32,000 nucleotides of DNA from Candidatus Methanoperedens sp. (GCA_027460535.1 JAPZAR010000025.1:1-32000), one strand, 5' to 3'. Positions 11,992 to 31,294 are shown, counted from the first letter of the stretch. A program made the numbers and translations. The notes: a model not told the origin generated them from the letters alone.

Positions 11992-11995
11992 CGGA

Positions 11996-12172
11996 TCAAT
12001 ATATCAATCCCATCCAAATCTTCTTTTCTGGAAATAGAGCACAAATCAGCATGTAGCCCGAGAAGAATAGAATAAAAGGTAAAATTTGAACCTTGCTGGA
12101 GAACTTGGGACGGGATTTATTATGGCAATAAAGCAAGACTGAAAACATGTTTATCAAGACTATATTTCTCAT
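11996..12172 (-). CDS. Possible small two-TM membrane protein (58 aa), speculative
   Basis: The track ORF 11996..12202 fills the 185-nt gap between the GT4 stop (12177) and the 629-aa gene start (11991). From the internal Met at 12172 it reads MRNIVLINMFSVLLYCH...ILPFILFFSGYMLICALF, with two hydrophobic segments. No homology was recognised, and it could be a chance AT-rich ORF. Confidence 0.2.
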   Translation of the reverse strand: MRNIVLINMFSVLLYCHNKSRPKFSSKVQILPFILFFSGYMLICALFPEKKIWMGLIY

Positions 12173-12176
12173 AGTT

Positions 12177-16552: not shown

Positions 16553-17586
16553 TCATCACTCTTATCTGTTGAATTGCGAAGATCGTAATATATCTTATCT
16601 AATTTTTTGGATATGTTCTCCCATGAGTAATGAAGAACAAGCTCCCGAGTTTTGACTGAAATTTCCCCGTCATTTAACTCTTTCACTTCTTGTGCAAATT
16701 TTTTAGTATCAGCATATGTAAACCCCTCCCCTTCGTTAAAAATTCTCGGCAATCCACCAAATCTTGTGGAAACGATAGGCAGATTGGTCGCCATCGCCTC
16801 CAATATTGACAGTGGTATATCTATACTTCCTATTGGATCAGTTGTCGGGAATATATAACAATCCGAAAGAGCATATATTTCCTCTATTTTTGGAATATAT
16901 TCATTAATTATCTCAACGCCTATTCTTTTTAGCTCTAATGCTACATCTACCTCGAATTTTGTTGAAGTTCTACCAACTAAAACAACTTGAACATCTTGAT
17001 TGTTCTGAATTTCCTTTAAGATGCTAACATTTCTCCATTTTCTTACAGACCCTACATGCAATACGACAAATTTTTCTGAAGATATTTTGTATTTTTCTCT
17101 AAGTTCTTCTTTACTTTTTCTTGATGCCGGATGGAATTTTTTGATATCTACACCGCTGGATACAAAGAATTTAACATTACATCCAAGCTTTGTAAAAATT
17201 TTTTCTGGCTCGTCTGATTGAACTAATACCAAATCCGTCTTAAAAAATGGTATAAAATTCTTGCTAATAGATGAAAAACCATAGTAAAAGCCATGAGAGA
17301 AACTGTGGAACGCATGTAGCGATGAAAACATTACCGTTTTTGCATTCTTAGAATGAATTTTCATCAGTTTCGTAATTAAAAAACTCAAAGGGGAAGCTCC
17401 AGGAATATAATGTATTATTTCAGGGTCAAATGAATTTATTTCATTCCAAAAATTGGTTGATAGAGTCGCTTGAATATTTAGTGGCTTTACCTCATTATTT
17501 TTTGATAGCTCTCTCAATAAATGGTGTCCCATAACTTTCCTTGCTTCATCCGGCGATGAGAAGTCACCTACTAAGCATATTCTCAT
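16549..17586 (-). CDS. GT4-family glycosyltransferase
   Basis: 345 aa. IPLSILEAMATNLPIVSTRFGGLPRIFNEGEGF is the GT4 E-x7-E region. The 3' end overlaps the radical SAM gene by 4 nt. Confidence 0.8.
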   Translation of the reverse strand: MRICLVGDFSSPDEARKVMGHHLLRELSKNNEVKPLNIQATLSTNFWNEINSFDPEIIHYIPGASPLSFLITKLMKIHSKNAKTVMFSSLHAFHSFSHGFYYGFSSISKNFIPFFKTDLVLVQSDEPEKIFTKLGCNVKFFVSSGVDIKKFHPASRKSKEELREKYKISSEKFVVLHVGSVRKWRNVSILKEIQNNQDVQVVLVGRTSTKFEVDVALELKRIGVEIINEYIPKIEEIYALSDCYIFPTTDPIGSIDIPLSILEAMATNLPIVSTRFGGLPRIFNEGEGFTYADTKKFAQEVKELNDGEISVKTRELVLHYSWENISKKLDKIYYDLRNSTDKSDE

Positions 17587-18790
17587 TTATAGCCTCCGTA
17601 TAAGCACCTTCGATGGCGTTTACTATATTTTTTATGTCATAATTTTCTACATACTCTAAAGCATTTCTTTCAATTTTTGCTTTTTCATCAGGATTCTTTA
17701 AGTAATACAAAATACGCTCAAGAAGCTCTGATTTATCATTTACTAATACCCCATTTTCTTTATTTTTAATTATTTTTCTAACGGCAGGAATGGAGTAAGC
17801 TATGCATAGAGTACCTGAAGCCATCGCCTCTAAAAGCACTATCCCAAACCCCTCCATCTTTGAGGGGAGAACAAATATATCTGCCCTTTTGTAGAGGCCT
17901 ATCAACCCATCGTCAGACACGTTTCCAGCAAAAATAGCTTTATCTTTTAGATTCTGATTTCCTACAATTTTTTCCAACTCTTTTTTGTATCCATAATCTT
18001 TTCCAACGATAACAAACTTGCCTTTTGGAAACTCTTTCAAAATTTCCGGCATTATTTCTATTATATCTTGTATTCCTTTATATTTCTCTATTCTTCCTAC
18101 AAAAAGCAAAATTTTGTTCTGATCATTAATTCCAAACTTATCTATTGCATTTTTATTTATGTTTATATTTTTATAACCATCCAATTCTATTCCATTTGGA
18201 ACAATTTTAATTTTATTTATATCTCCCCCCCTTTCATTATACTGCTGTATATGGTCTTCTGTTAACGCAATCAGCCGTTTAGAATTTTTTAGTAGATATC
18301 GCCCAAAGGTTTTGTCGTATACTTTTTTAAATAACTTAGCGTCAGATGATAAATTAGTAGGGATTATTAAGTCATGTGCTGTCAATATGAATGGTTTTTT
18401 AAACTTATTTGCATAATAGCATCCTGCCAGAGATGTAGATATATGGTATCCATGAGCATGGATTACATCAAATTCTTGTGTATTTTTTTTTAATTCTTTA
18501 AACATCTCAGGAATCCAATTAAAGCTCCAAAACCTAAATTGCATGTTAAATCTTCTTATAAAAGCCCCGTTGATAATGTCATTTTTGGGGAGATGCGTTT
18601 TAATCTTTGATTTGAAAATAAACGGCGGAGTAAACACTAAGGATACAACATCCTCTTTTGAAAGACTAGTAGTCGTATAAATTACCACATCATGCCCTTT
18701 ATCATATAAGTATTTAGATAATAGGTATGTATGTTTTTCAGCGCCTCCGAGTGATGGATAAAATCTGTTTTGTATGAGAAGTATCTTCAT
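17564..18790 (-). CDS. GT4-family glycosyltransferase
   Basis: 408 aa. The N-terminus MKILLIQNRFYPSLGGAEKHTYLLSKYL is typical of GT4 N-terminal domains. The catalytic region reads EGFGIVLLEAMASGTLCIAYSIPAVRKIIKNKENGVLV. Confidence 0.85.
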   Translation of the reverse strand: MKILLIQNRFYPSLGGAEKHTYLLSKYLYDKGHDVVIYTTTSLSKEDVVSLVFTPPFIFKSKIKTHLPKNDIINGAFIRRFNMQFRFWSFNWIPEMFKELKKNTQEFDVIHAHGYHISTSLAGCYYANKFKKPFILTAHDLIIPTNLSSDAKLFKKVYDKTFGRYLLKNSKRLIALTEDHIQQYNERGGDINKIKIVPNGIELDGYKNININKNAIDKFGINDQNKILLFVGRIEKYKGIQDIIEIMPEILKEFPKGKFVIVGKDYGYKKELEKIVGNQNLKDKAIFAGNVSDDGLIGLYKRADIFVLPSKMEGFGIVLLEAMASGTLCIAYSIPAVRKIIKNKENGVLVNDKSELLERILYYLKNPDEKAKIERNALEYVENYDIKNIVNAIEGAYTEAINENMLSR

Positions 18791-18806
18791 ATTTCTTCCT
18801 CATCCA

Positions 18807-19946
18807 TCATATTTGCAGTAAAAGCATTTCCATCCTTCCTGCAATCCTCTCCCAATCATAATTTTCTTCTACAAAACTTCTGCCTTCCAATCCCATCTTC
18901 CTTCTCAGTTTGTCATCTTCAAATAGCATAGTTATCTTATCTTTATACTCCTCCTTATTTGATGCATATAATATTTTATCACGTGCCACTTTTTCGATGC
19001 TGCTCAACCTCGTAGAAATAATTGGTTTTTCGCATGCCATATATTCAAATAATTTCAAAGGAACGGCACTCTCCGATATTGCGCTCTTCCTGAAAGGAAT
19101 CAAGCATATATCCATCGCTGAAATGTATTTCGGCACCTGAGAATAAGGAACCATACCAATAAATTTGACCCTATCCTTCAGATCATATCTCTTAGCCAAT
19201 TCTATATTTTCTTTAAATCTTCCTTCCTTTCCCACGATGACCAAATTTATTTCATTTTCTAATTCATTCAATACTGAAAAAACAGGTTCAAAATCGATCC
19301 ATTCTCTCAAAACCCCAACATAGCCAAGGATGAAGCCATTAAGACCCAGCTCTTCTTTCATCTTTTGACCATAATTTCTAAACAGATTCGTATCCACGCC
19401 ATTTGAGATAATTTCAGATTTATTTTCGGGGATACTATAGGTTTTTCCAAGATTATCCGTGGTAAGAGTTATCTTGCTAGAGATGCTGATATTCTTTTTA
19501 AGCATAATATCTCCAAATATTCCTCCAACCGATCTCAACAGAGAGGGAATTTGAGGCGACTCTTTGATCATGGCGCTAAGATCATCCGCGATATCATATA
19601 CTGTATCAAGTTTCTTAGCAGCATAATAACCCGACACCAGAGTGCTATAATTCAAATGGACCTCGAAGTCCTTCTCCTTCATAAGATTGGTGACTTTATT
19701 TCTTGAAAAAACTTCCTGGATTATAGGACTTATTTTCTTATCAGTCAAATGACGATAATCAACTCTATTGAATATCTCACTAAAGTATTCTGAATATGAT
19801 TCTAAGTCATCCTGCCCGCCCTTCCACCAATCATTTAAACTCAAGACTGTAACATTATGCTTTTTCGATAGATATTTGACAAAATGGTGGGGTCTATTAT
19901 GTTGGGATTTTTTCAAATCCACTATAGATGTTATTAAGATGTTCAT
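18807..19946 (-). CDS. GT4-family glycosyltransferase
   Basis: 379 aa. LGYVGVLREWIDF...AVPLKLFEYMACEKPIISTRLSSIEKV has GT-B/GT4-like architecture. It is the last gene of the AT-rich block, 21 nt downstream of wecB. Confidence 0.75.
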   Translation of the reverse strand: MNILITSIVDLKKSQHNRPHHFVKYLSKKHNVTVLSLNDWWKGGQDDLESYSEYFSEIFNRVDYRHLTDKKISPIIQEVFSRNKVTNLMKEKDFEVHLNYSTLVSGYYAAKKLDTVYDIADDLSAMIKESPQIPSLLRSVGGIFGDIMLKKNISISSKITLTTDNLGKTYSIPENKSEIISNGVDTNLFRNYGQKMKEELGLNGFILGYVGVLREWIDFEPVFSVLNELENEINLVIVGKEGRFKENIELAKRYDLKDRVKFIGMVPYSQVPKYISAMDICLIPFRKSAISESAVPLKLFEYMACEKPIISTRLSSIEKVARDKILYASNKEEYKDKITMLFEDDKLRRKMGLEGRSFVEENYDWERIAGRMEMLLLQI

Positions 19947-19967
19947 TAGAAACTCGCTAGGTACATT

Positions 19968-21053
19968 TTATCCACTTCTCCACTTTGCTTCCATCACCCT
20001 CCCAATCCTCTCGGCCGCCCTCCCATCACCGAATGGATTCCTCCATCCGTTCCCCTTTGCAAGCATGCTTCTGGCACACTCCACTACCCTCTCAGGCTCA
20101 ACCCCTGCAAGCAAATTCGATCCAACCTCAACAGTTTCAGGCCTTTCCGTGCTATCCCTGAGGGTAACGCATGGCACGCCAAGGATGCATGTCTCCTCTT
20201 GAACGCCTCCTGAGTCCGTCAGGACAAGACGCGCGCTGCTCTCAAGCTTCAAAAAGTCAAGGAAATCCACGGGATCGATCAATCTGATATATCCATTTGT
20301 CCTGATTCTAAACTCATCCATTTTTTTTCTTGAGCGGGGATGGATGGGATAGATAACAGGAATATCAAATTCATGGCTAAGTTTCTCGATGCCCTTCAAC
20401 ATCGCGGTTAGCCTTGCAGGGTCGTCCACGTTCTCCTGCCTGTGCGCCGTTACGAGGAAAAATTCTTTTGGTGCAATGTTCAATTCTTCCAGGGTGCTCT
20501 TCTCATTTGCGAGCCTTAAATTCTGGTTGACTGCATCAACGATCGTGTTCCCGGTAACGAATATCTTCTCTTCAGGGATGCCTTCATGCAGCAATATTTC
20601 CCTGGATTTTTCTGTGGGTGCGAAGAGGTAATCTGACGCGTGGTCTGCCAGGGCTCTGTTTAATTCCTCAGGCATACGTCTGTCATAGCTCCGCAAACCT
20701 GCCTCTACGTGAGCTACCTTGATGTGCAGCTTGGACGCTGCAAGCGCCCCCGCAAGCACGGTATTGGTGTCACCCTGCACCAGCACAGCATCAGGCTTCT
20801 CTTTCATGAGCACTCTCTCGATCCCTGCCATCATCTTGCCCGTCTGTTCGCCATGCGCTCCAGAACCGACCTCAAGGTTATACTTCGCCTCCGGGAGCTC
20901 AAGCTGCTCGAAGAAAACCCTGTCCATGCTGTAGGAATAATGCTGGCCTGTATGAAGGATAAAATGATCAAGGCCCCTTCGCTCGCATTCCCTTATAACC
21001 GGAGACATTTTTATGATTTCAGGTCTTGTTCCAAGGATTATTGCAAGGCTCAC
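19968..21053 (-). CDS. wecB: UDP-N-acetylglucosamine 2-epimerase (non-hydrolysing)
   Basis: 361 aa with a GTG start. Hallmark motifs: ILGTRPEIIKMSP, HVEAGLRSYD, DSGGVQEETCILGVPCVTLRDSTERPETV. GTGA start/stop overlap with the upstream GT2 gene. Confidence 0.9.
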   Translation of the reverse strand: MSLAIILGTRPEIIKMSPVIRECERRGLDHFILHTGQHYSYSMDRVFFEQLELPEAKYNLEVGSGAHGEQTGKMMAGIERVLMKEKPDAVLVQGDTNTVLAGALAASKLHIKVAHVEAGLRSYDRRMPEELNRALADHASDYLFAPTEKSREILLHEGIPEEKIFVTGNTIVDAVNQNLRLANEKSTLEELNIAPKEFFLVTAHRQENVDDPARLTAMLKGIEKLSHEFDIPVIYPIHPRSRKKMDEFRIRTNGYIRLIDPVDFLDFLKLESSARLVLTDSGGVQEETCILGVPCVTLRDSTERPETVEVGSNLLAGVEPERVVECARSMLAKGNGWRNPFGDGRAAERIGRVMEAKWRSG

Positions 21054-21943
21054 GCTTTCACTTCCCGTTTCTCCCGGATCAATTTCGACATCGAGTGCAG
21101 TATGATCCCTGTAAATACCATAAGAGACCCTATCAGTGTCAGCAATATCATCAACAGCGTTGGTCCGAACCGAAGGCTGCTTCCCAGATAAAAGTCCCGT
21201 ATATAGCTCAATCCCATGGCCAATCCAACTGCCATGAACGCTATGCCTGGGGCCGTAAAATAATACATTGGTCTATTTAATTCCATATCCTGCAGCACTC
21301 TGACCAGGACCTTCAATCCATGGCCCAGGGGATTCTCAGTGGAGCAATCAACATCGTACCTCACCCCGATCTCCACTTCTTTTAACTTCAGCCCTGCATT
21401 GGCTGCATCCATCAGCATCTCGCTCTCTATGGCCATTCCATTCTGCCTGAAGTTGAACACATGCGCCTTACTTGCTGCAAATGCACGAAAGCCGCTCTGG
21501 GTATCGGTAACACGAAGCCCGCTGTTCAGGTTGGTAGCCCTATCAAGCACGCTCTGACCTATACGGCGGTAAAAAGGTGTGTTCTTTCCATTGCCGTTCA
21601 TGTACCTGCTGCCGTTCACCATGTCCGCCTCCCCGGCGAGGATCGGAGCCACGAGCTTCGGGATCTCTTCTGGGTCGTGCTGCCCGTCGGAATCAAGGAT
21701 AACTATGACCTTTGTACCATTCTGTGCTGCTAACTCAAAACCTGTCTTAAGCGCAGCACCCTTTCCTTTGTTTGCAGGATGGCGGATAATTTTAGCCCCC
21801 GCCATCTCAGCTATCTCTGCAGTATGATCTTTGCTTCCATCGTCGACAACTATAACACAGTCGGCATGCTGTCTGCAATGGAGTACCAGGCTGCCTATGG
21901 ATACTTCCTCATTGAATGCGGGAAGGATTGCAGTTAAAGGTTC
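21050..21943 (-). CDS. GT2-family glycosyltransferase, dolichyl-phosphate hexose synthase-like with two C-terminal TM helices; start codon unresolved
   Basis: The track ORF (21050..21805) starts at an internal Met. The same frame stays open up to 21943 and there encodes the conserved GT2 N-terminus TAILPAFNEEVSIGSLVLHCRQHADCVIVVDDGSKDHTAEIAE. Downstream motifs are ILDSDGQHDPEEIP (DxD) and the C-terminal TM pair YYFTAPGIAFMAVGLAMGL / LLMILLTLIGSLMVFTGIIL. The coordinates give the maximal open frame. There is no ATG, GTG or TTG in frame between 21943 and 21805. Confidence 0.75.
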   Translation of the reverse strand, partial: EPLTAILPAFNEEVSIGSLVLHCRQHADCVIVVDDGSKDHTAEIAEMAGAKIIRHPANKGKGAALKTGFELAAQNGTKVIVILDSDGQHDPEEIPKLVAPILAGEADMVNGSRYMNGNGKNTPFYRRIGQSVLDRATNLNSGLRVTDTQSGFRAFAASKAHVFNFRQNGMAIESEMLMDAANAGLKLKEVEIGVRYDVDCSTENPLGHGLKVLVRVLQDMELNRPMYYFTAPGIAFMAVGLAMGLSYIRDFYLGSSLRFGPTLLMILLTLIGSLMVFTGIILHSMSKLIREKREVKA

Positions 21944-21947
21944 TCAA

Positions 21948-21996
21948 TCTATATAAATCTTTTCTTAATTATTAAATAATCTAAATTATAATCATT
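21948..21996. promoter_or_regulatory. Short divergent AT-rich promoter region with TATA-like boxes
   Basis: A 49-nt spacer lies between the GT2 gene (minus) and the small ORF (plus). It contains TATATAAA (21950-21957) and TAAATTATAAT (21982-21992). Assignment as archaeal TATA/BRE elements is by position only. Confidence 0.3.
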
Positions 21997-22176
21997 ATGA
22001 TTATACCTCTTCATCCATGTCCCCAAGGCAGCATGCACAATTTTACAGCACGATACCATTCAGTGGAGGGATACAAGGAATGTTTTCCTGGCCCATATCA
22101 AGGACAGTGGCATTATCAGCTTGATAGTTGCATGTATGGCAAGTGCTCATTGGCAGATATATCATGTTATACATAA
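21997..22176 (+). CDS. Unlisted small Cys/His/Tyr-rich protein (59 aa), hypothetical
   Basis: ATG at 21997 to TAA at 22174-22176. Translation: MIIPLHPCPQGSMHNFTARYHSVEGYKECFPGPYQGQWHYQLDSCMYGKCSLADISCYT. It falls just below the track's 60-aa cutoff. A TATA-like box lies ~40 nt upstream and a strong hairpin plus T-tract lies 64 nt downstream on the same strand. Confidence 0.3.
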   Translation: MIIPLHPCPQGSMHNFTARYHSVEGYKECFPGPYQGQWHYQLDSCMYGKCSLADISCYT

Positions 22177-22237
22177 AAAATCCAGTTCATAACTATCTAT
22201 AGCATGGTTCTTGAATTTCTGTAATTTAAGAATGATT

Positions 22238-22294
22238 AGCCGCAGATGAACGCAATGCGCCGCTATAAATCTGCGTTCATCTGCGGTTTTGTTT
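22238..22294 (+). terminator. Perfect 15-bp hairpin followed by a T-tract (intrinsic-terminator-like or structured small RNA 3' end)
   Basis: CCGCAGATGAACGCA (22240-22254) pairs perfectly with TGCGTTCATCTGCGG (22272-22286). The loop is 17 nt. The stem can extend by G-U and A-U pairs, and TTTTGTTT follows at 22287-22294. The T-tract is present only in the plus orientation. Confidence 0.5.
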
Positions 22295-22415
22295 CTCATG
22301 GATATCACGGTTATTTTCGAATTTCAATATAAACTCAGCTAACGTATAACCGTAAGCCGCCAGCGCTATGCCTGATTATGTTCTGCATTATTATTTCCTA
22401 ATTATTTATACCTGT

Positions 22416-23291
22416 TTAAAAAAAAGAATTCGCCATTTTCTGTCCGGTACGCATTCGATTTCTCCTTGCAAACTTCAGGTAAACAAGGGCAAAGAAGGCG
22501 TACCATAGCGGAAAGATAATGTATCCAGCAAAACTCTCCCCGCCCTCCACTGCGGAAGGTCCGAAATAGTAGCCCGCAAACAATAGCAGCACAATACGCA
22601 AAAGGTTCTGGATTGAGGTGCCAATGATGCCAAAAAGCAACATGGCTGCCCATTGCTTTCTTGGAAGCGGAATATCCAGGGACATCAGGGCAAAAACCGC
22701 AAGAAATACAGAGATCGAGGCAGCACCCGAACATTCGGCATTGATGATCACCACGAGGCTTTCACTCGAAAGCGTGGTCATTGAAATTGCTGTACCACTG
22801 GTTGTGATCGCGATAAAGTTCTTCGCAATAGTATAGACCACCCATGTTGTAGCCTGAGCATACTGCACTCCTGCAAAAGTATTCACAAGCTTAGGAAACG
22901 CTATTCCAAAGCCGTATATGCACAGAAGAAGCGCGGGCAGGGAAGCAGCCTCGCCGAAAAATACGAACGCAAGTCCTGTCCATGCAAGGAGAAGGCGGAA
23001 TATTTCAAATTCCGGAGCCACTGCAGGCAGGAAGAAAGAAGCTATCATGATCCCCGCCCCGCCTGCTGCAAACAAAGGTGCAGGTTTGGCATCATGGATC
23101 TCGCGTCGCTTTGCGAATAAAAAGATCAGGCAGAGAAATAGCACTGCCCACGGATACACGCCGTTGAGTGTAAAGTATTCAGGCGACAGGTTTGCCAGTG
23201 ATTTCAACGGATTAAACAGGACTGCCGCGGCTGAGGCAAATATGAGAAAGTACCCGGTCCTTTGCTTCAGCGTAATGTCCATCAGGTTCAT
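22416..23291 (-). CDS. Archaeosortase (exosortase/archaeosortase EpsH-like family); PEF-CTERM-type (ArtC-like) inferred from its neighbour
   Basis: 291 aa and polytopic (~7-8 TM). The family signature around the catalytic Cys is VVIINAECSGAASISVFLAV (Cys187, nt 22731-22733). A conserved Arg sits in IQNLLRIVLLLFAG (Arg232). A PEF-type sorting-signal protein is encoded two genes upstream. Confidence 0.8.
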   Translation of the reverse strand: MNLMDITLKQRTGYFLIFASAAAVLFNPLKSLANLSPEYFTLNGVYPWAVLFLCLIFLFAKRREIHDAKPAPLFAAGGAGIMIASFFLPAVAPEFEIFRLLLAWTGLAFVFFGEAASLPALLLCIYGFGIAFPKLVNTFAGVQYAQATTWVVYTIAKNFIAITTSGTAISMTTLSSESLVVIINAECSGAASISVFLAVFALMSLDIPLPRKQWAAMLLFGIIGTSIQNLLRIVLLLFAGYYFGPSAVEGGESFAGYIIFPLWYAFFALVYLKFARRNRMRTGQKMANSFF

Positions 23292-23321
23292 AGTGGTGCA
23301 GGAGTCAAAAAATCTTTCGAA

Positions 23322-23744
23322 TCAATCGAACCTGTACTCAATGGTGTCTACAGGCTCTATATGGTCGTCGCGATAGACTGCAAAAGAGATGTTATGTACA
23401 GGCTCTTCAATGATTGTATCGTTTACGTACTGTCTTTCAGTGGGGAGCGTCATGGAGAATGAGAATGGCAGATCTGGCATGACTTCAACGGTCTCATTGG
23501 TAATAAAAATGGAATTCATAAAAACACGAACCGTGTAGTTATGGCTGATGGCATCACCATTATTTATTCGGACTGAGATATCTGATATCTTTCCGAGTTG
23601 TGCGCTATAACCATCCACTCTGTTAAACTCTACGGGTTTCGTGTATTTTGTTTCCTGCTGGTATACTCCTTGAACAATGAAGATCAGTATACTTACCAGA
23701 ATCAATAGTAAAAATATATAAACATATTTTAATTTAAGATTCAT
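23322..23744 (-). CDS. Signal-anchored protein with a beta-rich ectodomain (CARDB/DUF1616-C-terminal-like), unknown function
   Basis: 140 aa. The N-terminal TM is MNLKLKYVYIFLLLILVSILIFIV. It is followed by ISVRINNGDAISHNYTVRVFMNSIFITNETVEV, an alternating beta pattern. There is a 4-nt overlap with the upstream PEF-signal gene, and it ends 30 nt before the archaeosortase start. Confidence 0.55.
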   Translation of the reverse strand: MNLKLKYVYIFLLLILVSILIFIVQGVYQQETKYTKPVEFNRVDGYSAQLGKISDISVRINNGDAISHNYTVRVFMNSIFITNETVEVMPDLPFSFSMTLPTERQYVNDTIIEEPVHNISFAVYRDDHIEPVDTIEYRFD

Positions 23745-24235
23745 TTAAGTATACTTTTCCGCAATCTCGTATAAAATATTCCAATTAACAATAGGGGTAC
23801 AGCCAAACCAAATTTGCTGAACTCAGGGGCTGCAATTACCTCAAATCCTTTGGAGGAGCTACTGTATCTACTGCCTTGTGCAAGCGTACCACTACAAAAG
23901 CCATTAGAAAATTCTTTAGCGTTAATTTTCCATTTATTACTTATTTGACCTGGAGTAAAATAACTGATATATTGGTTTCCAATATTGGCAATACATTGAG
24001 TAGATACGGTACTGCTACCAACAACCCAATTAAAGCTCATGGAATTACCAATAAAATTCGCAGAAGATGGATTTGGAGTTACCGTATCTGTCACAAGAGT
24101 GTTTATAGCGAAATTATCGCTACCTGGCGGCGTAGCTGTACCTGTCAGAGTATGGGTATATTTATAAGTACCTGGTGCACTTGCTGCATTGGCAGACAAA
24201 AAAATAATAATTACAAGCAATACTAATTTTCTCAT
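23741..24235 (-). CDS. Small secreted protein with a PEF-type C-terminal archaeosortase sorting signal
   Basis: 164 aa. The signal peptide is MRKLVLLVIIIFLSANAASA/PG. The ~115-aa domain is Thr/Ser/Asn-rich and has two Cys. The C-terminus is tripartite: APEF (aa 136-139), the hydrophobic helix SKFGLAVPLLLIGIFY, and the basic tail TRLRKSILK (signal encoded at ~23744-23827). Confidence 0.75.
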   Translation of the reverse strand: MRKLVLLVIIIFLSANAASAPGTYKYTHTLTGTATPPGSDNFAINTLVTDTVTPNPSSANFIGNSMSFNWVVGSSTVSTQCIANIGNQYISYFTPGQISNKWKINAKEFSNGFCSGTLAQGSRYSSSSKGFEVIAAPEFSKFGLAVPLLLIGIFYTRLRKSILK

Positions 24236-24958
24236 TTATCTCACCCCTCCAATGATTAAAGCAATCTGCGTGAGCACCATTCCTACGAATATTATGAACA
24301 GCACGCTGGATAGCCTGCCGAACCTGGTGCGCAGGTTTCCGACGGCACTCTGGCGCTTCCCGGCAAGCGGCTCTGAGAGTTCCATATATATAAGCAGGAT
24401 TATCAATGCAATGCTGATTATCAGGCCTACGTTCAGCGCATTGTGCGTGACGAAGGATCCATCGTAGTATGCCATGGAATTAATAGAACTCGTCTTTGCG
24501 GATGACGAACTAACCACTGACGTGGCAAACGTGGCAAATGAAACAAAGCTGCTCAATAACGCTGGATGATATGCAGGAACTGAAAGGGATGTTATGGAAT
24601 TTCCGCTATCGGATTGTGTTTTCGCCACGAATGTGACCTGCTCCCCGGTTTTCAATGGGTTGCTGTAAACGTATTGGAACTGCCTGCCTGCATTTGGTGC
24701 AAGGCTTGCAGTGCCGCTCATCACGATCTCACCGTTCGCATAAAGGCCGTAATGAGTGTCCGCCTCTGTATGTGACGGATTGTTCAAGAAAAAGGTTACA
24801 AGGATTGGCTCCCCTTGTCTGGGCGCCTCAGGCATTGCCCGTATCGCGACCGCATCCAGGCGTGACTGCAAACTTGCAGCAAAGCTGCCAAGGATTAGAA
24901 TCGCAAACCATAACACAACTATCTTGAATAAAAGTCCACGCTGTCCCCCGTTACTCAT
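24236..24958 (-). CDS. Membrane protein with an N-terminal anchor, Ig/CARDB-like ectodomain, Ser-rich linker and C-terminal TM pair; unknown function
   Basis: 240 aa. The first TM is LLFKIVVLWFAILILGSFAA. The ectodomain reads PRQGEPILVTFFLNNPSHTEADTHYGLYANGEIV...EQVTFVAKTQSD. The linker SFATFATSVVSSSSAKTSS is followed by LNVGLIISIALIILLIYM and SSVLFIIFVGMVLTQIALIIGG. Its stop abuts the start of the PEF-signal gene. Confidence 0.55.
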   Translation of the reverse strand: MSNGGQRGLLFKIVVLWFAILILGSFAASLQSRLDAVAIRAMPEAPRQGEPILVTFFLNNPSHTEADTHYGLYANGEIVMSGTASLAPNAGRQFQYVYSNPLKTGEQVTFVAKTQSDSGNSITSLSVPAYHPALLSSFVSFATFATSVVSSSSAKTSSINSMAYYDGSFVTHNALNVGLIISIALIILLIYMELSEPLAGKRQSAVGNLRTRFGRLSSVLFIIFVGMVLTQIALIIGGVR

Positions 24959-25236
24959 TTCCTATTCCTCCTAATTTGATGAAATTTATTGACATTACAC
25001 ATGACGACCACCTGCGTTTTTTATGACTCTCCACTCTAGGATCGACAGTTATTATAACTGTGAATACGATTCTTATTTTAGAGTTGACAATTAACCATTG
25101 CATTTAAAGGTATTTAAAATTATCGGTAAATAAATATAATTATCATAATCATTAACACTGCATGCTAATTATCACTACATGTAGATGATGCGGAGAGGCA
25201 GTATGATTATATAACTTAAAGTACTGAAACATTACC
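24959..25236. promoter_or_regulatory. Divergent intergenic control region between the archaeosortase cassette and the CPBP operon
   Basis: A 278-nt AT-rich spacer between divergently transcribed units. It contains TATA-like runs (TTTAAAAT, AAATAAATATAAT), three copies of AATTATC (25118, 25138, 25167) and two TTGACA(A)TTA motifs. Function is inferred from position only. Confidence 0.3.
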
Positions 25237-26055
25237 ATGTTTAATTACATTTCCAAGAAACTCGAGTTCAGTCACGTAAGCTCCAGATTTTTTATTCTTT
25301 TGATCTTTATTGCCATCATTGTGTCCGAGTATATATTTGCATTCAGGGATGTAAGCTACGGAATAGTGCTCTCTCTCTTTATTACGATCGCAATTTATGT
25401 CACAATATCAGTCACCAGGATGGAAGGAGATTTCGTAAATTCGGCAGAATCTCTTGCGCTAATACCAATTTATGTGCTTTTTACCTCATCCCTCCCCTGG
25501 TTTTTCATCAACCAGCAGTACCTCTTACCTGCGGTTTACTCTTTGATCCTTGCCCTCTGCTTCTGGCACATAAACGAGCGCAATATAGACCTTCGTGAGC
25601 TTGGGTTCCGTTCAGAAGGCGCACTGAAATACGCTCTCATCGGTGCAGCATTAGGTATTCCAACCGGGATTATGGAATATTTAATCCTCATGCCTTCACC
25701 ATCATTCCCATCTTTTGAAATCACGATTTTGTTTCGTGATGTGCTTTATATGCTGTTATTTGTCGCTCTGGCAGAAGAACTCCTGTTCAGAGGCATTATA
25801 ATGAATGACCTGAAAAAAGTGTTCGGCTTGAGAACAGCGATCCTGGCACAGGGTGCTATATTCGGAATCATGCATATGACATGGCGCTCATCCTATGAGA
25901 TCGCATTCACTTTTTTCGCGGGTGTACTTCTGGGATACTTTTATTACAGAACAAGAAGTCTCGTCGGTCCAATAGTAATGCACGGAATGAATAATATTAT
26001 TCTCGTCTCCTTGATGCCGTATATATTTCCCGTTGTCCAAAAGTGGTTTGCATGA
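25237..26055 (+). CDS. CPBP-family intramembrane glutamic endopeptidase (CAAX protease/Abi-like)
   Basis: 272 aa and polytopic. All three family motifs are present: LAEELLFRG (EExxxR), IFGIMHM (FxxxH) and VMHGMNNI (HxxxN). Confidence 0.85.
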   Translation: MFNYISKKLEFSHVSSRFFILLIFIAIIVSEYIFAFRDVSYGIVLSLFITIAIYVTISVTRMEGDFVNSAESLALIPIYVLFTSSLPWFFINQQYLLPAVYSLILALCFWHINERNIDLRELGFRSEGALKYALIGAALGIPTGIMEYLILMPSPSFPSFEITILFRDVLYMLLFVALAEELLFRGIIMNDLKKVFGLRTAILAQGAIFGIMHMTWRSSYEIAFTFFAGVLLGYFYYRTRSLVGPIVMHGMNNIILVSLMPYIFPVVQKWFA

Positions 26056-26810
26056 AGGCCGGGCTCAGGGTCGATGTTGACTGTATCGCTGATGCTCTGG
26101 CACTTCCTGCACTTTTTGATATTCTCGAAAGATATGATTCCAGAGCAACTTTTTTTATTGCTACAGGTCCCGATGATACATTTCGGAATATCGGGCACTA
26201 TGCAGGAAAAAAAATCTTTGACCTGCCTCTCAGAAGATATGGAATGGGGTTTTTCCACGGGCTTTTAAAGAAACATGTGGAATCACATCCTAATCTTAAA
26301 ATTCTCATTGATACCGACCATGAGATAGGGCTTCATGGTTACAGGCATTACGAATGGATGAATTTTCTTCAAGGGAAAAGAAGGGAGGAGGTATCGACAA
26401 TGATATCAAAAGGGTGCGAGCTGTTCGAAAATGAGTTCAGCTTCCCTCCAAGCTCGTTTGCCTCACCAGGTTTTCGGACCAGCAATGAATACTTCCTCGC
26501 ACTCGATGATTTTGGTTTTGATTATTCCAGCGACTTTTATGGTGACAGAGTATTTTATCCGGAAATAAATGGCAAGAGTCTAAAAACCATGCAGGTTCCA
26601 GTTAGCATGCCCTCACCGGGCGAATTAGGCGCAGATGACAGCTATATAATAACGAGGGTAAAAGAGCTTTGTAAGAGCGAATATTTTGTTTTCTACATTC
26701 ATCCCTCTTATGAAACCGTCTTTAAAAAGAACCTTTTAGAGCAAATCCTGAACCTTACTGGAGGGACCATAACACTTTCGGAGATTCATGAAAATCCTTC
26801 AGATATATGA
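26052..26810 (+). CDS. Polysaccharide deacetylase/deformylase family protein (ArnD-like)
   Basis: The track ORF starts at GTG 26043. I prefer ATG 26052, which forms an ATGA overlap with the CPBP stop. MKAGLRVDVDCIADALALPALFDILERYDSRATFFIATGPD and HEIGLHGYRHYEW resemble ArnD-type NodB-fold deacetylases. Confidence 0.7.
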   Translation: MKAGLRVDVDCIADALALPALFDILERYDSRATFFIATGPDDTFRNIGHYAGKKIFDLPLRRYGMGFFHGLLKKHVESHPNLKILIDTDHEIGLHGYRHYEWMNFLQGKRREEVSTMISKGCELFENEFSFPPSSFASPGFRTSNEYFLALDDFGFDYSSDFYGDRVFYPEINGKSLKTMQVPVSMPSPGELGADDSYIITRVKELCKSEYFVFYIHPSYETVFKKNLLEQILNLTGGTITLSEIHENPSDI

Positions 26811-27948
26811 GCTTGATCCGCTGAAACGAATTGGGGGCGTGGAGGTTGCTATTTTCGAACTCTCGCGCCACCTTGCTGCGCTGGGGCATGAGGTAACTGT
26901 TGTATCAGGAGCAGATGGAACATGTGGAGAATACATGCAGGATGGAGTTCACTTTATTAACATGGATTTCTGTAATATTCTTAGAGTTGCCCGCTCCCGT
27001 GGCGGACTTTCGCTTGCCAGGCAAGCTGCATTTCTACCCGTCGTACTCTCAAAAAAACTGAGCGGATATGACATATACCACGGGCATGTGTACACTTCCG
27101 GGATCGCTGCGAACATCCTTGCAAGAAGGTACGGCGGGGTTGCCGTGAATACTATTCATGGCTCCTACTATCCAGAATGGGATTTACTCGTGAACCCTGC
27201 GGCTGCTGTATTCTATAGATCGGTAGAACGCATCCTTGCGCCTGCGCTCGCCCATATGTCTGACGTTCAAATCCATACAGGCGGTTACTTTGCTCAACAA
27301 GTACTCAGATGGGGTGCACAAACAGAAAAGATCAAAGTGATTTACAATGGGGTTGATGTCAAGAAGTTCCATCCGGGAATTAAACCGGTTCCCTCTGCCT
27401 ACCCATGCCCTGTCCTTGTGACAGCAAGGAGGCTTGTCAGAAAAAACGGTGTGGACAGACTTATACGCTTCATGCCTTTCATACTCGAGAATAAGGAGTG
27501 CAGGCTTCTTATAATAGGCGATGGACCCGAACGCCACAATCTATTGCACCTGGCTGATGAGCTTGGCATAAAAGAAAGCGTGGATTTTCTGGGTGCAATA
27601 CCTCATAAGAACATAGCAGAATACATTGCATTGGCGGACATCGCAGTGATACCCAGTATAGTGGAGGCTTCAAGTATCTTTATGCTTGAAGCCATGGCGA
27701 TGTGCAAGCCTGTTGTTGCTACGGGTGCATGGGGACTTGAAGAAATCATAAACGGAAAGAATGGTGTGCTCACGGATGCCGAGCACCTCGGAGAAGAAAT
27801 TGTGGCGCTCCTCTCCGACGAGCGCAGGTTAAAGGAAATTGGGAATAACGCACGCAGTTATGTGATCGAAAACCATGCCTGGGAAAAGATTGCAAAACGT
27901 ATAGAAAACGAATATCTCAGGCTTTTGCAATGCAGACCATCCATTTGA
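26788..27948 (+). CDS. GT4-family glycosyltransferase
   Basis: 386 aa. The N-terminus reads MKILQIYELDPLKRIGGVEVAIFELSRHLAALGHEVTVV. The catalytic region reads EASSIFMLEAMAMCKPVVATGAWGLEEIINGKNGVL. It overlaps the deacetylase 3' end by 23 nt. Confidence 0.85.
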   Translation: MKILQIYELDPLKRIGGVEVAIFELSRHLAALGHEVTVVSGADGTCGEYMQDGVHFINMDFCNILRVARSRGGLSLARQAAFLPVVLSKKLSGYDIYHGHVYTSGIAANILARRYGGVAVNTIHGSYYPEWDLLVNPAAAVFYRSVERILAPALAHMSDVQIHTGGYFAQQVLRWGAQTEKIKVIYNGVDVKKFHPGIKPVPSAYPCPVLVTARRLVRKNGVDRLIRFMPFILENKECRLLIIGDGPERHNLLHLADELGIKESVDFLGAIPHKNIAEYIALADIAVIPSIVEASSIFMLEAMAMCKPVVATGAWGLEEIINGKNGVLTDAEHLGEEIVALLSDERRLKEIGNNARSYVIENHAWEKIAKRIENEYLRLLQCRPSI

Positions 27949-28047
27949 GATCTTTCTAAAGCAAAAAGGCATCAGCAGATGTTGTGAGGCTTTCATTTAG
28001 AACACCTCATACGTACTGAAGCGGACAATCTTTGGAATAGTCTACAC

Positions 28048-29373
28048 TTACCCGCTCCCTCCAACAGTAGCTTTCTTTACAAGCACATGCGGCGCCCCGT
28101 CGCTAACAGGCACAAGCTGCCCCGCTTTCCCGCATCTTCCAGAGTTCATCTCTAGATCGTTCCCTATCATGACCACGCTATCCAATATCTCAAGTGTATG
28201 CCCCGATAATGAAACATCCCTCAGCGGTCTGGCGATCTCGCCGTTCTCGACCATGAACCCGCGTTCTGCATTGAACTGGAACACTCCCTCGCCGGGATTG
28301 ACCTGGCCCCCGCGGGAGCCCATGAGATATATCCCGTTCTTTAATTCAGAGAGCATCTCCTCGAATTTTGTTCCATCTGGAGCTATGAAGGTGTTGCTCA
28401 TCCTTATGATAGGGCGGGCATAGCCCTGGGAACGGGAATTCCTGCTCTCTCCTCCCAGTTTGCCAGCAGTTTCCCTTGAATGTATATACGCCTTAAGCAC
28501 TCCGTTCTCTATCACGCTTGTTCTCCTGGAATTAGCCCCCTCGTCATCAAAAGGGTAATAGCCGAACTCATGAAGAGAGGGATCGTCATATACTGTTATA
28601 AGTGGAGAGGCGATCCGTTCTCCTATCTTGCCTGCAAGTATGGAATTGTCCTCCAGAACATGGTCGGCCTCTACAGCGTGTCCCACGGCCTCATGAATGA
28701 ATACACCCGCCAGTTCCTGGTCAAGGATAACCGGGTATGTACCGCCTTTTGGGGTTGATGCAGAGAGAAGTTCGACTGCTGTAGTGGCCGCTTTTCGCGC
28801 AAGCTCAAATGCATCATGCTTTTTAAAGATCTCAAAGCCCATTACTCCGAACCTGCTTTCCCTTCCTATCTGATATATCCCTTCTGACTGGGCAACCGCG
28901 CTCACGGCAAAGCCCACCCTGTTCAATGTGTATTCGCAATCCAGCCCTTCTGAATTTGAATAGCCGACCGTCAGAAGCGATTCCGAATAAACAGCGCTTG
29001 TGCTTTTTATCCCTTCGATGCGGGCAGTTTTTTCAATTTCCAAAAGCAGCTTTACTTTATTCTCTATGGGAATATCCTCAGGGTTCTCCAGTACCTCCGG
29101 AAGGTTCTGCAATGTCGGTTTCTCTACCGGTGCGAGATTTATTTCATCTCTCGGTCTCTTGTTCTTTGCTGCCTCCGCAAGCCTTCTTGCAGAGCCAAGG
29201 GCTGCCTCCAGGCCTTCCGGGTTATCCTTCGATACATAGCCCCATGATCCTCCGCAGAGAACCCTGACCGCGGCTCCGCTTGAGAAATTATTTGTGATCT
29301 CCCGGATCTCCCCATTATCCAGAACAATAGCTGTGGAGACGCTTCTTATAATACGGGTATCGTAAAAATCCAT
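28048..29373 (-). CDS. tldD: TldD-type zinc metalloprotease (TldD/PmbA family)
   Basis: 441 aa. HEAVGHAVEADH is the HExxxH motif that distinguishes TldD from PmbA/TldE. The C-terminal GRCGKAGQLVPVSDGAPHVLV is typical of the family. Confidence 0.85.
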   Translation of the reverse strand: MDFYDTRIIRSVSTAIVLDNGEIREITNNFSSGAAVRVLCGGSWGYVSKDNPEGLEAALGSARRLAEAAKNKRPRDEINLAPVEKPTLQNLPEVLENPEDIPIENKVKLLLEIEKTARIEGIKSTSAVYSESLLTVGYSNSEGLDCEYTLNRVGFAVSAVAQSEGIYQIGRESRFGVMGFEIFKKHDAFELARKAATTAVELLSASTPKGGTYPVILDQELAGVFIHEAVGHAVEADHVLEDNSILAGKIGERIASPLITVYDDPSLHEFGYYPFDDEGANSRRTSVIENGVLKAYIHSRETAGKLGGESRNSRSQGYARPIIRMSNTFIAPDGTKFEEMLSELKNGIYLMGSRGGQVNPGEGVFQFNAERGFMVENGEIARPLRDVSLSGHTLEILDSVVMIGNDLEMNSGRCGKAGQLVPVSDGAPHVLVKKATVGGSG

Positions 29374-29380
29374 GGGTCTC

Positions 29381-31294
29381 TCACAGGATAGTAACCGGCC
29401 TTGTTTCCGGCAGGGCTATGTTGAATTTGGTTCTGGAGGCAAGTTTCTTAAGCGTGGAGATAAAACCTTCCTTTTCTACGCCCACGAGGCTGTATTCCAG
29501 TACCTCCTCAATATTCGTCACCGGGATGATCTTGATTATATCCTTGAATTCATCCTCAATGAGCACATCGCCCATGTTAGATTTTGGAATTATCACAGTC
29601 TTTATCCCTGCCTGGGCTGCTGCTTCGATCTTGTAGGTGACACCACCCACTGGCAGCACATCACCCCTGACAGAGAGCGATCCTGTCATGGCTACGCTCT
29701 GATCCACCGGTATTCCCTGGATAGCGGAAAGAACCGCGGTAGCTATGGATATGCTGGCCGAATCGCCTTCCACTCCTTCATACGTGCCCACGAACTGGAT
29801 GTGCACATCCATACTCGATATATCCTTGCCCGTGGTTTTCTTGATCAGCGCGGAAACATTCTGGACAGCTTCCTTTGCAATGTTCTTAAGCATGCCAGTG
29901 GCGATAATGTGGCCTTCGGATATAGACTGGGTGGGCGTGACCTCAGCTATTATGGGAAGCACTATTCCCGAATCCTCACCCATCACGGCAAGACCGTTGA
30001 CCCGGCCTATCTGCGCACCTTCCTTCACGAACAGCCTGTAATCTTTCCTGCGTTCAAGATACTGGTGCGCAAGCTGCTGTTCGACCGAGCGTGCAATGCT
30101 TTTTGCTTTCAATACATGTTGGGCCGTCGTGATCTGCGCCTTTTCACCGTGGGCTATATCCCCGGCCACGCGCACAAGCCCGCCGAGGTCCCTGAGCTTT
30201 AGGGTGAGATGTCCTTTCCTGCCCGCCCTGCGCCTCGCTTCCCTGAGGATCTCTTCGACAGCGCCCCTGTCAAAATGTGGAATTTTACCATCCTTCACCA
30301 CTTCTTGCGCAACGAAACGAACAAGCTTCTGCCTGTTCTCGGGAGTATCTTCCATCGTATCGCTCATGTATATCTCATAGCCGTATCCCTTGATACGGGA
30401 ACGCAATGCCGGATGCATGCCTTTGAGGGCATCCAGGTTCCCTGCGGCGATCATGATAAAGTCTGTGGGAACGGGGTCGGTTTTTACCATTGCTCCGCTT
30501 GATCTCTCAGACTGGCCTGTGATCGCAAATTCTTTTTCCTGAAGGGCTGTGAGGAGATTCTGCTGCGATTCGATACGCAGTGTGTTTATTTCATCGATGA
30601 ACAGGACACCTTTGTGTGCTTTATGGATTGCCCCGCTTTCGACCCTGTCATGGGCCGGGGTCTCAAGACCACCGGATTGGAACGGGTCATGGCGCACATC
30701 ACCCAGGAGAGCTCCAGCATGTGCCCCTGTGGCGTCGATATACGGTGCTATCTCCTTACCGGCATTTGAAACAAGAAGTTTGGGAATGAAAATGGTTTCT
30801 TTAGGCATGAACTGTCGCATCATTATGGCGATCAAAACAGCCGCAATGATCCCCCAGAGCAGCATCCCGGTATAAAATGAATATGCCACAATTCCAAGAA
30901 CAAGAAGCATAACGAACATATTCCTGGCCTGCATCCTCTTCTGGGCTTCCAGCTTGTGGGCGTCGGTTATTTCTTTACCTTTCCCGGCAGGAACGATACG
31001 TATCTTGGGATTGTTGGAGTCTTCAGGATTGTGATATATAAGAACATCCTGCAACTCTTCCTTTGGAAGCAATTCGGCCATCGCCTTGGCTAGCATCGAT
31101 TTACCTGTGCCCGGAGTTCCGAGCATCATCACATGCCTTCGCTGGTTAGCCGCCTTCTTTACAACTTCCACGGCATGTTCCTGGCCTATGACCTGTTCTA
31201 TTAACTGTTTTGGAACCTCGATATCTTTTGTGGATGTTATTTCTAATCCGCCAAGAAGGTCCTGGTTCTTCACTTCATTTTCAGCATTTTCCAT
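29381..31294 (-). CDS. lonB: Archaeal membrane-bound ATP-dependent Lon protease (LonB type)
   Basis: 637 aa. Walker A is MLGTPGTGKSM. Two TM helices (MFVMLLVLGIVAYSFYTGMLLWGIIAAVLIAIMM) are inserted before Walker B (VLFIDEIN). The protease domain has GVEGDSASISIATAVLSA (catalytic Ser) and GGVTYKIEAA (Lys). Confidence 0.95.
   Translation of the reverse strand: MENAENEVKNQDLLGGLEITSTKDIEVPKQLIEQVIGQEHAVEVVKKAANQRRHVMMLGTPGTGKSMLAKAMAELLPKEELQDVLIYHNPEDSNNPKIRIVPAGKGKEITDAHKLEAQKRMQARNMFVMLLVLGIVAYSFYTGMLLWGIIAAVLIAIMMRQFMPKETIFIPKLLVSNAGKEIAPYIDATGAHAGALLGDVRHDPFQSGGLETPAHDRVESGAIHKAHKGVLFIDEINTLRIESQQNLLTALQEKEFAITGQSERSSGAMVKTDPVPTDFIMIAAGNLDALKGMHPALRSRIKGYGYEIYMSDTMEDTPENRQKLVRFVAQEVVKDGKIPHFDRGAVEEILREARRRAGRKGHLTLKLRDLGGLVRVAGDIAHGEKAQITTAQHVLKAKSIARSVEQQLAHQYLERRKDYRLFVKEGAQIGRVNGLAVMGEDSGIVLPIIAEVTPTQSISEGHIIATGMLKNIAKEAVQNVSALIKKTTGKDISSMDVHIQFVGTYEGVEGDSASISIATAVLSAIQGIPVDQSVAMTGSLSVRGDVLPVGGVTYKIEAAAQAGIKTVIIPKSNMGDVLIEDEFKDIIKIIPVTNIEEVLEYSLVGVEKEGFISTLKKLASRTKFNIALPETRPVTIL

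Follow-up and report, generated by a model that had tools for sequence, protein, structure and literature searches.

What exosortases and archaeosortases join their substrates to, and why CAAX-type proteases, CE4 deacetylases and GT4 glycosyltransferases recur beside these enzymes, are questions on which a locus of Candidatus Methanoperedens sp. bears. Exosortases and archaeosortases are widespread, and to our knowledge only ArtA has been studied experimentally among them. In a stretch of 32,000 nucleotides from this archaeon (GCA_027460535.1, JAPZAR010000025.1:1-32000; hereafter the window), a cassette encoding an archaeosortase-family enzyme, a putative cargo protein (p164) and two further membrane proteins (p240 and p140) is transcribed divergently from an operon for a CPBP intramembrane protease, an ArnD-like deacetylase and a GT4 glycosyltransferase. 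The original prediction suggested that archaeosortase processing may be tied to the CPBP and glycan genes beside it, and the gene neighbourhoods and gene fusions described here support it at the level of functional linkage. p240, a cargo with a PEF-type tail, p140, the archaeosortase, CPBP, the ArnD-like deacetylase and GT4 very probably work as one unit, since their orthologues co-occur in shuffled order across lineages and are found fused. We interpret the region as encoding a module of the exosortase/archaeosortase kind that is self-contained and dedicated to the C-terminal sorting of proteins; to this reading, together with the mechanism proposed below, we assign a probability of roughly 0.6.

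Conservation of the gene neighbourhood

Window genes were called by open reading frame (ORF) listing and translation, and families were assigned from Pfam and NCBIfam hidden Markov model (HMM) scans. We collected 47 loci with archaeosortase relatives, 15 from reference genomes and 32 from metagenomes (designated L with a number), and annotated them by BLAST and with HMMs built from the window proteins. The informative set comprises 16 distinct loci that span at least 8 kb and encode an enzyme with the catalytic Cys. An orthologous CPBP (43-64% identity) was found in 14 of these 16, p240 likewise in 14, and the deacetylase together with GT4 in 13; in both informative loci that lack CPBP, the archaeosortase lies less than 2 kb from a contig end. 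The Methanoperedens and Methanosarcinaceae loci have the same divergent layout as the window. Elsewhere the order is CPBP-deacetylase-GT4-archaeosortase in one direction (L006, L035 and L056), p240-CPBP-archaeosortase-deacetylase-GT4 (L013) or, in a further group of loci, CPBP-archaeosortase-p240. The neighbourhoods are conserved yet reshuffled over 27-74% archaeosortase identity.

Seven long contigs were also sampled with CPBP as bait, and other module genes were present in all of them (7/7), namely the archaeosortase in 3/7, p240 in 5/7, the deacetylase and GT4 in 3/7 and a PEF cargo in 4/7. Co-occurrence of CPBP, deacetylase and GT4 with this archaeosortase clade, as the original prediction anticipated, was observed from the archaeosortase side and from the CPBP side. 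The module is found in Methanoperedens, Methanosarcinaceae, Methanomethylovorans, the anaerobic methanotrophic archaea (ANME) of group ANME-1 (Methanophagales loci L005 and L011), Argoarchaeum, Bathyarchaeota and Hydrothermarchaeales, and also in metagenome-assembled genomes (MAGs) labelled Chloroflexi and Peptococcaceae. On the Peptococcaceae contig, which was recovered with p240 as bait, genes for exosortase, a PEL-tailed cargo, p140, CPBP and p240 follow one another beside SLH-domain, PolA and Fpg genes, and the module of the Chloroflexi contig sits with GroEL/ES genes.

Gene fusions

Several members of the module occur joined in single polypeptides. GT4-archaeosortase fusions of 694-714 aa were identified in L014 (identical to L044), L043, L045 and L046 and in P0322; they comprise four distinct sequences that are 76-80% identical and are flanked by the deacetylase and CPBP. 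The GT4 of these Bathyarchaeota-type fusions is linked to the N-terminus of the archaeosortase, on its cytoplasmic side. An archaeosortase-CPBP fusion of 564 aa (P0349) keeps the Cys, Arg and His residues of the sorting enzyme; its CPBP half shares 44% identity with that of the window over 236 residues (E 4e-70), and the protein has no match to the exosortase E/protease family TIGR04162 at E<=0.001. P0413 joins a DUF1616-like domain (30.2 bits, just below the 31.6-bit cut-off) to an archaeosortase. Finally, in two archaeosortase-cargo fusions, L051 10889-12901 (670 aa, PEF tail) and P0399 (470 aa, PDF tail), the enzyme domain is followed by an extracellular region and then by the protein's own PEF or PDF motif, transmembrane (TM) helix and Arg-rich tail. 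The presence of enzyme and substrate in one polypeptide implies self-processing.

Together, the neighbourhood and fusion data contradict a coincidental juxtaposition, in which an archaeosortase cassette was inserted beside an unrelated CPBP/deacetylase/GT4 operon within a variable glycan island. Such an insertion would fit the jump in GC content at about 20 kb, the presence of a low-GC glycan island to one side and the lineage-specific adjacency of wecB and a GT2 gene. However, the same orthologues co-occur with shuffled order across phyla and both domains, the module families are fused in several combinations, and the profile family is extremely rare (of 1.84 billion representative clusters, an exhaustive profile search returned only 54 at E<=1e-30), so that chance adjacency is not realistic. 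We regard this explanation as hardly credible.

The cargo and its partners

The cargo p164 ends in APEF-SKFGLAVPLLLIGIFYT-RLRKSILK, which by inspection is a tripartite signal of the PEF-CTERM type and the sole tail of this type within the window. Cargo proteins at the equivalent cassette position in other loci range from 150 to 1169 aa and have unrelated bodies, among them DUF11 repeats, Cys-rich repeats and S8 peptidase or glycoside hydrolase domains. Their ends are invariably PEF or PEL followed by approximately 16-18 hydrophobic residues and an R/K cluster (28 distinct tails, that of p164 included), and the consensus from these tails is (D/S)sFxVxxxA(I/V)-PEF-(P/S/G)x-hydrophobic-(M/L)R(R/K)K.

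In p240, which is encoded by the first gene of the cassette, an N-terminal TM helix precedes a CARDB-like beta-sandwich; an invariant Ser-rich segment (SSFVSFA) and a C-terminal pair of TM helices complete the protein. HMM scans placed p240 in no Pfam or NCBIfam family, and it has 107 homologues at 37-100% identity, of which one at 100% is annotated from a Candidatus Methanoperedens MAG. The AlphaFold2 (AF2) model of p240 has a predicted local distance difference test score (pLDDT) of 68.7 overall and of about 90 for the sandwich, and its structural match is the CARDB domain 3idu (target-normalised TM-score 0.69). We also sought a function for p240 from its fold, and the search returned only generic Ig/CARDB-like sandwiches, with no functional lead.

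The small protein p140 has no family match in the HMM scans, where it stays below the 31.6-bit cut-off of DUF1616 (PF07760), and 33 small homologues were found within the collected loci. An HMM built from these small p140 proteins alone has two kinds of match: the last TM helix and C-terminal domain of DUF1616 proteins (PF07760), at E 1e-7 to 1e-4, and p240 over its N-terminal half. p140, p240 and the DUF1616 proteins are probably distant paralogues, although the database compared is small and a TM-helix bias is possible. Full DUF1616 genes adjoin GT4 in L002, L003, L018, L019, L009, L006 and L052. In L006 (10806-12466), a full-length DUF1616 gene lies directly downstream of the archaeosortase and is followed by a second, divergent CPBP that is 31% identical to the window CPBP; such DUF1616-CPBP pairs may be a separate recurring unit.

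Some loci repeat the p240/cargo/p140 triad against one CPBP and one archaeosortase, with three triads in L012, two in L027 and two or three in L005. Because p240 and p140 are copied one-for-one with each cargo, we read them as cargo-specific stoichiometric partners, and the archaeosortase and CPBP as shared catalysts. As judged from gene copy number, the archaeosortase, CPBP, the deacetylase and GT4 are single-copy shared enzymes.

The archaeosortase

The window archaeosortase scores 46.2 bits on both PF09721 (cut-off 25.7) and TIGR04178 (cut-off 23). Its best named subfamily is ArtC (TIGR03762), at 43 bits against a cut-off of 100 and with an alignment that covers model positions 157-267 only; its relatives score 25-56 bits on the same HMM. 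By these profile scores, the enzyme is a member of the exosortase/archaeosortase family that falls outside every named subfamily. The AF2 model has a pLDDT of 82.7, and no match was found in PDB by sequence or fold. The proposed catalytic triad of the exosortase family is Cys/Arg/His (Haft preprint 10.1101/2023.06.07.544157), and in our alignment C187 and R232 are conserved.

In a sister clade that is no more divergent than the cassette-bearing relatives it was compared with (about 41% identity; L010, L033 and L036), Ser replaces the catalytic Cys (GAPSSG). No module neighbours at all accompany the enzyme in L010 and L033 (0/2), and none of the three loci holds CPBP, p240 or a PEF cargo. This clade may be a non-proteolytic or serine-type offshoot. 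The Ser-for-Cys enzymes have a different context, in which a GT2 follows and both an unannotated ORF of 472 aa and a distant GT4 lie in the vicinity.

CPBP protease, deacetylase and glycosyltransferase

The window CPBP scores 78.4 bits on PF02517 (cut-off 22.4), and the motifs EExxxR, FxxxH and HxxxN are read in its translation as EELLFR, FGIMH and HGMNN. Of its 713 homologues, more than 120 share >=53% identity with it; it has no match in PDB. The protein falls below the cut-off of every named CPBP subfamily scanned: it reaches 18 bits on the PEP-CTERM-associated CAAX protease-related family TIGR03008 (cut-off 81), has no match to TIGR04162 (cut-off 150) at E<=0.01 and reaches 46.2 bits on the myxosortase model NF040914 Mrt_core (cut-off 100). 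Its best named relatives are the myxosortase-type sorting proteases. CPBP had been expected to group with exosortase-associated clades and not with housekeeping ones; it appears to belong to a clade of its own which is tied to exosortase-family genes and is not housekeeping, but its TIGR03008 and TIGR04162 results put it outside the named exosortase-associated families.

The deacetylase scores 32.1 bits on PF01522 (cut-off 23.1), and the CE4 metal-site motifs (Asp-Asp and His-x-x-x-His) are read as RVDVD and HGYRH. Its full-length alignment to ArnD (NF011923) gives 88.5 bits against a cut-off of 382, and the closest solved structure by sequence is also ArnD (8t0j, E 5e-15, full length). On these grounds it is an ArnD homologue and not an equivalog. 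No signal peptide, TM helix or hydrophobic segment was found in it, and it is predicted to be cytoplasmic. GT4 scores above cut-off for both halves of the GT-B fold (PF00534, 107.9 bits; PF13439, 79 bits), and its top NCBIfam matches, BshA, stp2, stp3 and MshA, are all below cut-off. On the corresponding XrtA-system families, GT4 scores 100.5 bits against 409 for stp2 (TIGR03088) and the deacetylase 18.6 bits against 276 for TIGR03006. At the subfamily level, the components of the module fit no curated family by HMM score.

Comparison with known systems

Among the closest known systems is ArtC/PEF-CTERM (TIGR03762/TIGR03024; Haft, Payne & Selengut 2012, as cited in PMC5244752 and PMC9723798). 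The likeness lies in an archaeosortase-family enzyme with ArtC as the best-scoring subfamily, in a signal that by inspection is built of Pro-Glu-Phe, a TM helix and a basic cluster, and in an overlapping host range of Methanosarcinales and ANME-2. In the ArtC system the cargo is spread through the genome, as suggested by 10-19 PEF-CTERM domain hits per genome (PMC5244752 Table 2), whereas here the cargo is encoded in the cassette with dedicated p240 and p140 partners and CPBP. ANME-1 was scored negative for ArtC and PEF-CTERM domains by domain scan (PMC5244752); the present module differs in occurring also in ANME-1 and in bacteria.

The bacterial PEP-CTERM/XrtA (EpsH) system (Haft 2006, PMC1569441) resembles the module in combining an exosortase, CPBP, a CE4 deacetylase and GT4, and in its tripartite C-terminal signal. 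EpsH-CAAX fusions are known, and a correlation with PEP-CTERM systems is reported for PF00534 and PF01522 (PMC1569441). We compared the XrtA-system CAAX-like protease TIGR03008, deacetylase TIGR03006 and GT4 families stp1-3, and the archaeal CPBP, deacetylase and GT4 are all below the cut-offs of that system's families. The module is also a compact seven-gene cassette and not a large exopolysaccharide (EPS) locus, it has the extra conserved partners p240 and p140, its motif is PEF and not PEP, and it is hosted by archaea and by bacteria that are monoderm or atypical. In the VPEID-CTERM system, the exosortase E/protease (TIGR04162) likewise pairs exosortase-family and CPBP domains, and a fused orthologue exists among the module proteins (P0349). 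In contrast to that family, the window genes are separate and divergently transcribed, the signal motif differs, and the Peptococcaceae CPBP scores 30.3 bits against the TIGR04162 cut-off of 150.

A mechanistic precedent for sugar attachment at a C terminus is provided by T9SS, the type IX secretion system, with its PorU protease and Wbp/Vim linking-sugar pathway. T9SS cargo is joined at its C terminus to a glycolipid linking sugar, and the CE4 deacetylase VimE has been proposed to expose the amine (Veith 2020, PMC7468200); exosortase loci with an adjacent deacetylase and glycosyltransferases have been speculated to work like T9SS (PMC7468200). The PorU protease family is unrelated, however, the T9SS signal is a C-terminal domain and not a TM helix, and VimA adds Ser or Gly in T9SS, whereas no FemAB-like gene was seen in the cassette. 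Both cleavage at the C terminus and the attachment of a prenyl-derived lipid depend on ArtA (Haft preprint 10.1101/2023.06.07.544157). A further likeness is to the ArnC/ArnD aminoarabinose pathway, in that the deacetylase is nearest to ArnD and a Dol-P-sugar-synthase-like GT2 adjoins the module in Methanoperedens. Here, however, the partner is GT4 and not ArnC, there are no ArnT, ArnE or ArnF homologues, and the product is proposed to be a protein acceptor and not a lipid A modifier. Literature searches returned no prior account of the cassette, which agrees with the earlier remark that this linkage is uncharacterised for archaeosortases; within the literature searched, the cassette appears not to have been described before.

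Proposed mechanism and alternatives

We propose that Sec would export the cargo, which would stay in the membrane by virtue of its C-terminal helix and RLRK stop-transfer sequence. On the cytoplasmic face, GT4 would add an N-acetyl-hexosamine to a membrane lipid, and the ArnD-like enzyme would then strip the acyl group and expose a free amine on the lipid-linked hexosamine. After flipping of this lipid-linked amino sugar, Cys187 of the archaeosortase would attack at the PEF motif, and the amine would resolve the Cys187 thioacyl intermediate to leave the cargo amide-linked to a glycolipid anchor. CPBP, complexed with the archaeosortase, would serve as a second intramembrane protease, whose most likely task would be to remove or trim either the remnant of helix and basic residues that is released or a modified intermediate. 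ArnD is a cytoplasmic-face de-N-acylase (deformylase) of a polyprenyl-phosphate-linked amino sugar. A lipid-linked hexosamine is proposed as the acceptor because the deacetylase is nearest to ArnD, GT4 is found tethered to the sorting enzyme, ArtA is needed for lipid attachment, and the linking sugar of T9SS offers a precedent. The glycolipid-acceptor step is put forward tentatively, and the assignment of CPBP as a second protease is offered with similar reserve.

Several observations weigh against this reading. The column of the triad His is occupied in the window enzyme by Glu252 (22536-22538, minus strand; motif GGES). The same Glu is present in all aligned relatives of the Methanoperedens subclade (57-95% identity to the window protein), and more distant cassette-bearing relatives keep His at this third triad position, which suggests that the subclade has a Cys/Arg/Glu variant site. 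The PEF-type signal was defined by inspection and a regular expression and not by HMM, because the PEF-CTERM model TIGR03024 gave no match for 8 cargos even at E<=10. In four CPBP-baited loci (L052-L055) there is no archaeosortase within 8-10 kb, and CPBP might therefore be the primary enzyme. The deacetylase and GT4 are not within 3-10 kb in the full cassettes of L011, L023, L026, L048, L054 and L055, and the core reaction therefore does not need them locally. In addition, no flippase was identified, and the top matches of GT4 are generic, so that its substrate specificity cannot be read from sequence.

In an alternative reading, GT4 and the deacetylase would not make the acceptor; their product would be a decorating glycan on the cargo (O- or N-linked via a lipid carrier) or a partly deacetylated matrix polymer that houses the cargo. 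The archaeosortase would then anchor its cargo to an ordinary membrane lipid, which is what has been proposed for ArtA. Ser/Thr-rich stretches that precede the cargo tails, the scores of GT4 on the PelF, EpsE and stp2/stp3 EPS glycosyltransferases, the large glycan locus bordering the window cassette, and the cassettes with no local GT4 or deacetylase are all in keeping with this possibility. Against it, the GT4-archaeosortase fusion has been kept through 20-24% divergence, which argues for direct hand-over between the active sites; the deacetylase is ArnD-like and cytoplasmic and is not a secreted polysaccharide deacetylase; and one GT4 is a thin basis for a polymer. We consider this alternative unlikely.

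In a second alternative, CPBP could cleave the PEF-CTERM signal in the manner of a myxosortase, leaving the archaeosortase homologue to act only as a ligase or modifier or on another substrate such as p240. CPBP is the more conserved of the two enzymes (53-64% against 36-43% identity in the same pairs), accompanies cargo, p140 and p240 with no nearby archaeosortase in L054 and L055, and has myxosortase-type sorting proteases as its best named relatives, and the window archaeosortase lacks the triad His. Myxosortase-type signals carry an invariant Cys (Haft preprint 10.1101/2023.06.07.544157), but the PEF tails have none. The archaeosortase Cys and Arg are conserved wherever the cassette exists, whereas the Ser-variant clade has no cassette; the archaeosortase-cargo fusions point to the archaeosortase acting on the PEF tail; and the L054 and L055 assemblies are incomplete, so that an archaeosortase may lie elsewhere in those genomes. 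Cleavage of the tail by CPBP thus appears quite improbable, and cleavage by the archaeosortase is retained in our proposal.

The proposed mechanism can be carried one step further. In glycosylphosphatidylinositol (GPI) anchoring, PIG-A and PIG-L make an amino-sugar lipid, in parallel with GT4 and the de-N-acylase. By this analogy the module could be a compact glycolipid-anchoring pathway parallel to GPI anchoring, in which the membrane Cys transpeptidase would join the cargo C-terminus to that lipid, CPBP would complete the processing and each cargo would need its own pair of the related beta-sandwich membrane proteins p240 and p140, although we rate so complete a parallel as rather doubtful.

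Organization of the window and its flanks

The features of the window region are listed in Table 1. The genes and coordinates of the original prediction, its two gene overlaps and the 278-nt divergent spacer were all reproduced by ORF calling, HMM scans and reading of the junctions. The minus-strand cassette consists of four tightly packed genes, in which the start of p164 directly abuts the stop of p240, p164 and p140 meet in an ATGA overlap, and the archaeosortase gene begins 30 nt after p140. On the plus strand, the CPBP/deacetylase junction reads GC-ATGA-AGG, again an ATGA overlap, and the deacetylase stop (26808-26810) and the GT4 start (26788), read directly, give an overlap of 23 nt. 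Alignment of the intergenic region with those of L003, L018 and L019 identified conserved TTATATAAT and TTTAAATA blocks, and a TATA-like TTATATAA, a putative promoter element, lies about 25 nt upstream of the CPBP ATG. The aligned spacers of the Methanoperedens loci appear to have TATA-like boxes in common, which is no proof of co-regulation. Rfam and tRNA scans found no RNA genes in the window.

Table 1. Features of the window region (positions counted from the first nucleotide of the window).
Feature	Position	Strand	Description
wecB	19968-21053	-	TIGR00236, 434 bits
AglJ/PpgS-like GT2	21050-21805 (homology to 21937)	-	Canonical start lost
Archaeosortase-family cysteine transpeptidase	22416-23291	-	Unnamed clade, ArtC-like; C187, R232, E252
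p140	23322-23744	-	Small partner with one N-terminal TM helix and a beta-rich domain distantly related to the C-terminal part of DUF1616
p164	23741-24235	-	Secreted cargo with Sec signal peptide and C-terminal PEF-CTERM-type sorting signal
p164 sorting signal	23744-23827	-	Residues 137-164; PEF motif, TM helix, RLRK stop-transfer
p240	24236-24958	-	Conserved membrane protein, first cassette gene; no family match
Divergent intergenic region	24959-25236		278 nt, AT-rich TATA-like boxes
CPBP (Rce1-like) glutamic intramembrane protease	25237-26055	+	PF02517; all catalytic motifs intact
ArnD-like CE4 de-N-acylase	26052-26810	+	PF01522, DUF2334; best named match ArnD (NF011923)
GT4 glycosyltransferase (GT-B, retaining)	26788-27948	+	PF00534 and PF13439

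The module had been placed inside a glycan locus, and this holds for the left flank, where wecB and GT2 are present as predicted together with a low-GC (31-36%) glycan locus, but not for the right flank, which carries TldD and LonB. wecB and GT2 adjoin the archaeosortase only in loci of the Methanoperedens lineage (L001-L004, L006, L017 and L039); they were considered as module members and rejected because their adjacency is confined to this lineage.

GC content steps sharply at about 20 kb, from 31-36% (1-20000) to 41-52% (20000-31000), and the low-GC glycan locus may be a horizontally acquired island. Its enzymes include four GT4s and a second CE4 deacetylase (8465-9379), and it also encodes a radical SAM/SPASM protein, a type I phosphodiesterase and a methyltransferase, together with a thymidylate-kinase-like gene. 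A 72-codon open frame on the minus strand (11996-12211), flanked by a GT4 (12177-13331) and an unannotated ORF of 629 aa (10102-11991), gives a weak match (E 2e-5) to the HMM of the p140/DUF1616-type domain; it may be what is left of a DUF1616-like gene or reflect a mis-called start of one. The homology of GT2 to its relatives runs up to 21937 (EPLTAILPAFNEE...VVDDGSKD), with an in-frame TGA immediately upstream and no ATG, GTG or TTG before the ATG at 21805; its canonical start has therefore been lost. The annotated product of 251 aa would miss the N-terminal nucleotide-binding part, and the gene could be a pseudogene, have a non-canonical start or reflect an assembly error.

We also noted features of individual loci outside the window. 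In the Chloroflexi/Dehalococcoidia-labelled L050 (9615-10004) and L051 (12905-13351), a Fur-family regulator gene lies directly beside the CPBP-exosortase pair, which hints at metal-dependent regulation. Two contigs of about 5 kb from one 'Bacteroidales' MAG (L007 and L008) hold two paralogous cassette copies, each with p240, PEF cargo, p140, archaeosortase, GT4 and deacetylase and no other genes; their p240 is about 55% identical to the Methanoperedens protein, and the Bacteroidales label could reflect mis-binning or horizontal transfer. In L054 (5786-9981 and 10604-16831), a cargo/p140/CPBP/p240 set with no archaeosortase adjoins phage structural genes (SU10-type capsid and adaptor) and is interrupted by two small genes matching the Pfam family 23S_rRNA_IVP.

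Implications

Our comparative analyses add two new conserved membrane-protein families, p240 and p140, and place PEF-type sorting in bacteria as well as in ANME-1, groups in which earlier domain scans either reported it absent or did not look for it. The fusions of archaeosortase with GT4, with CPBP and with cargo show which proteins must meet. If the parallel with GPI anchoring were true, it would identify both the long-sought acceptor used by enzymes of the exosortase family and what the CAAX protease that recurs beside them does, in a seven-gene set common to archaea and bacteria. With the module, the problem comes down to seven genes, among them the cargo gene in cis; the module is present in relatives of the genetically tractable Methanosarcinales, and makes the questions of the acceptor and of the second protease directly testable.

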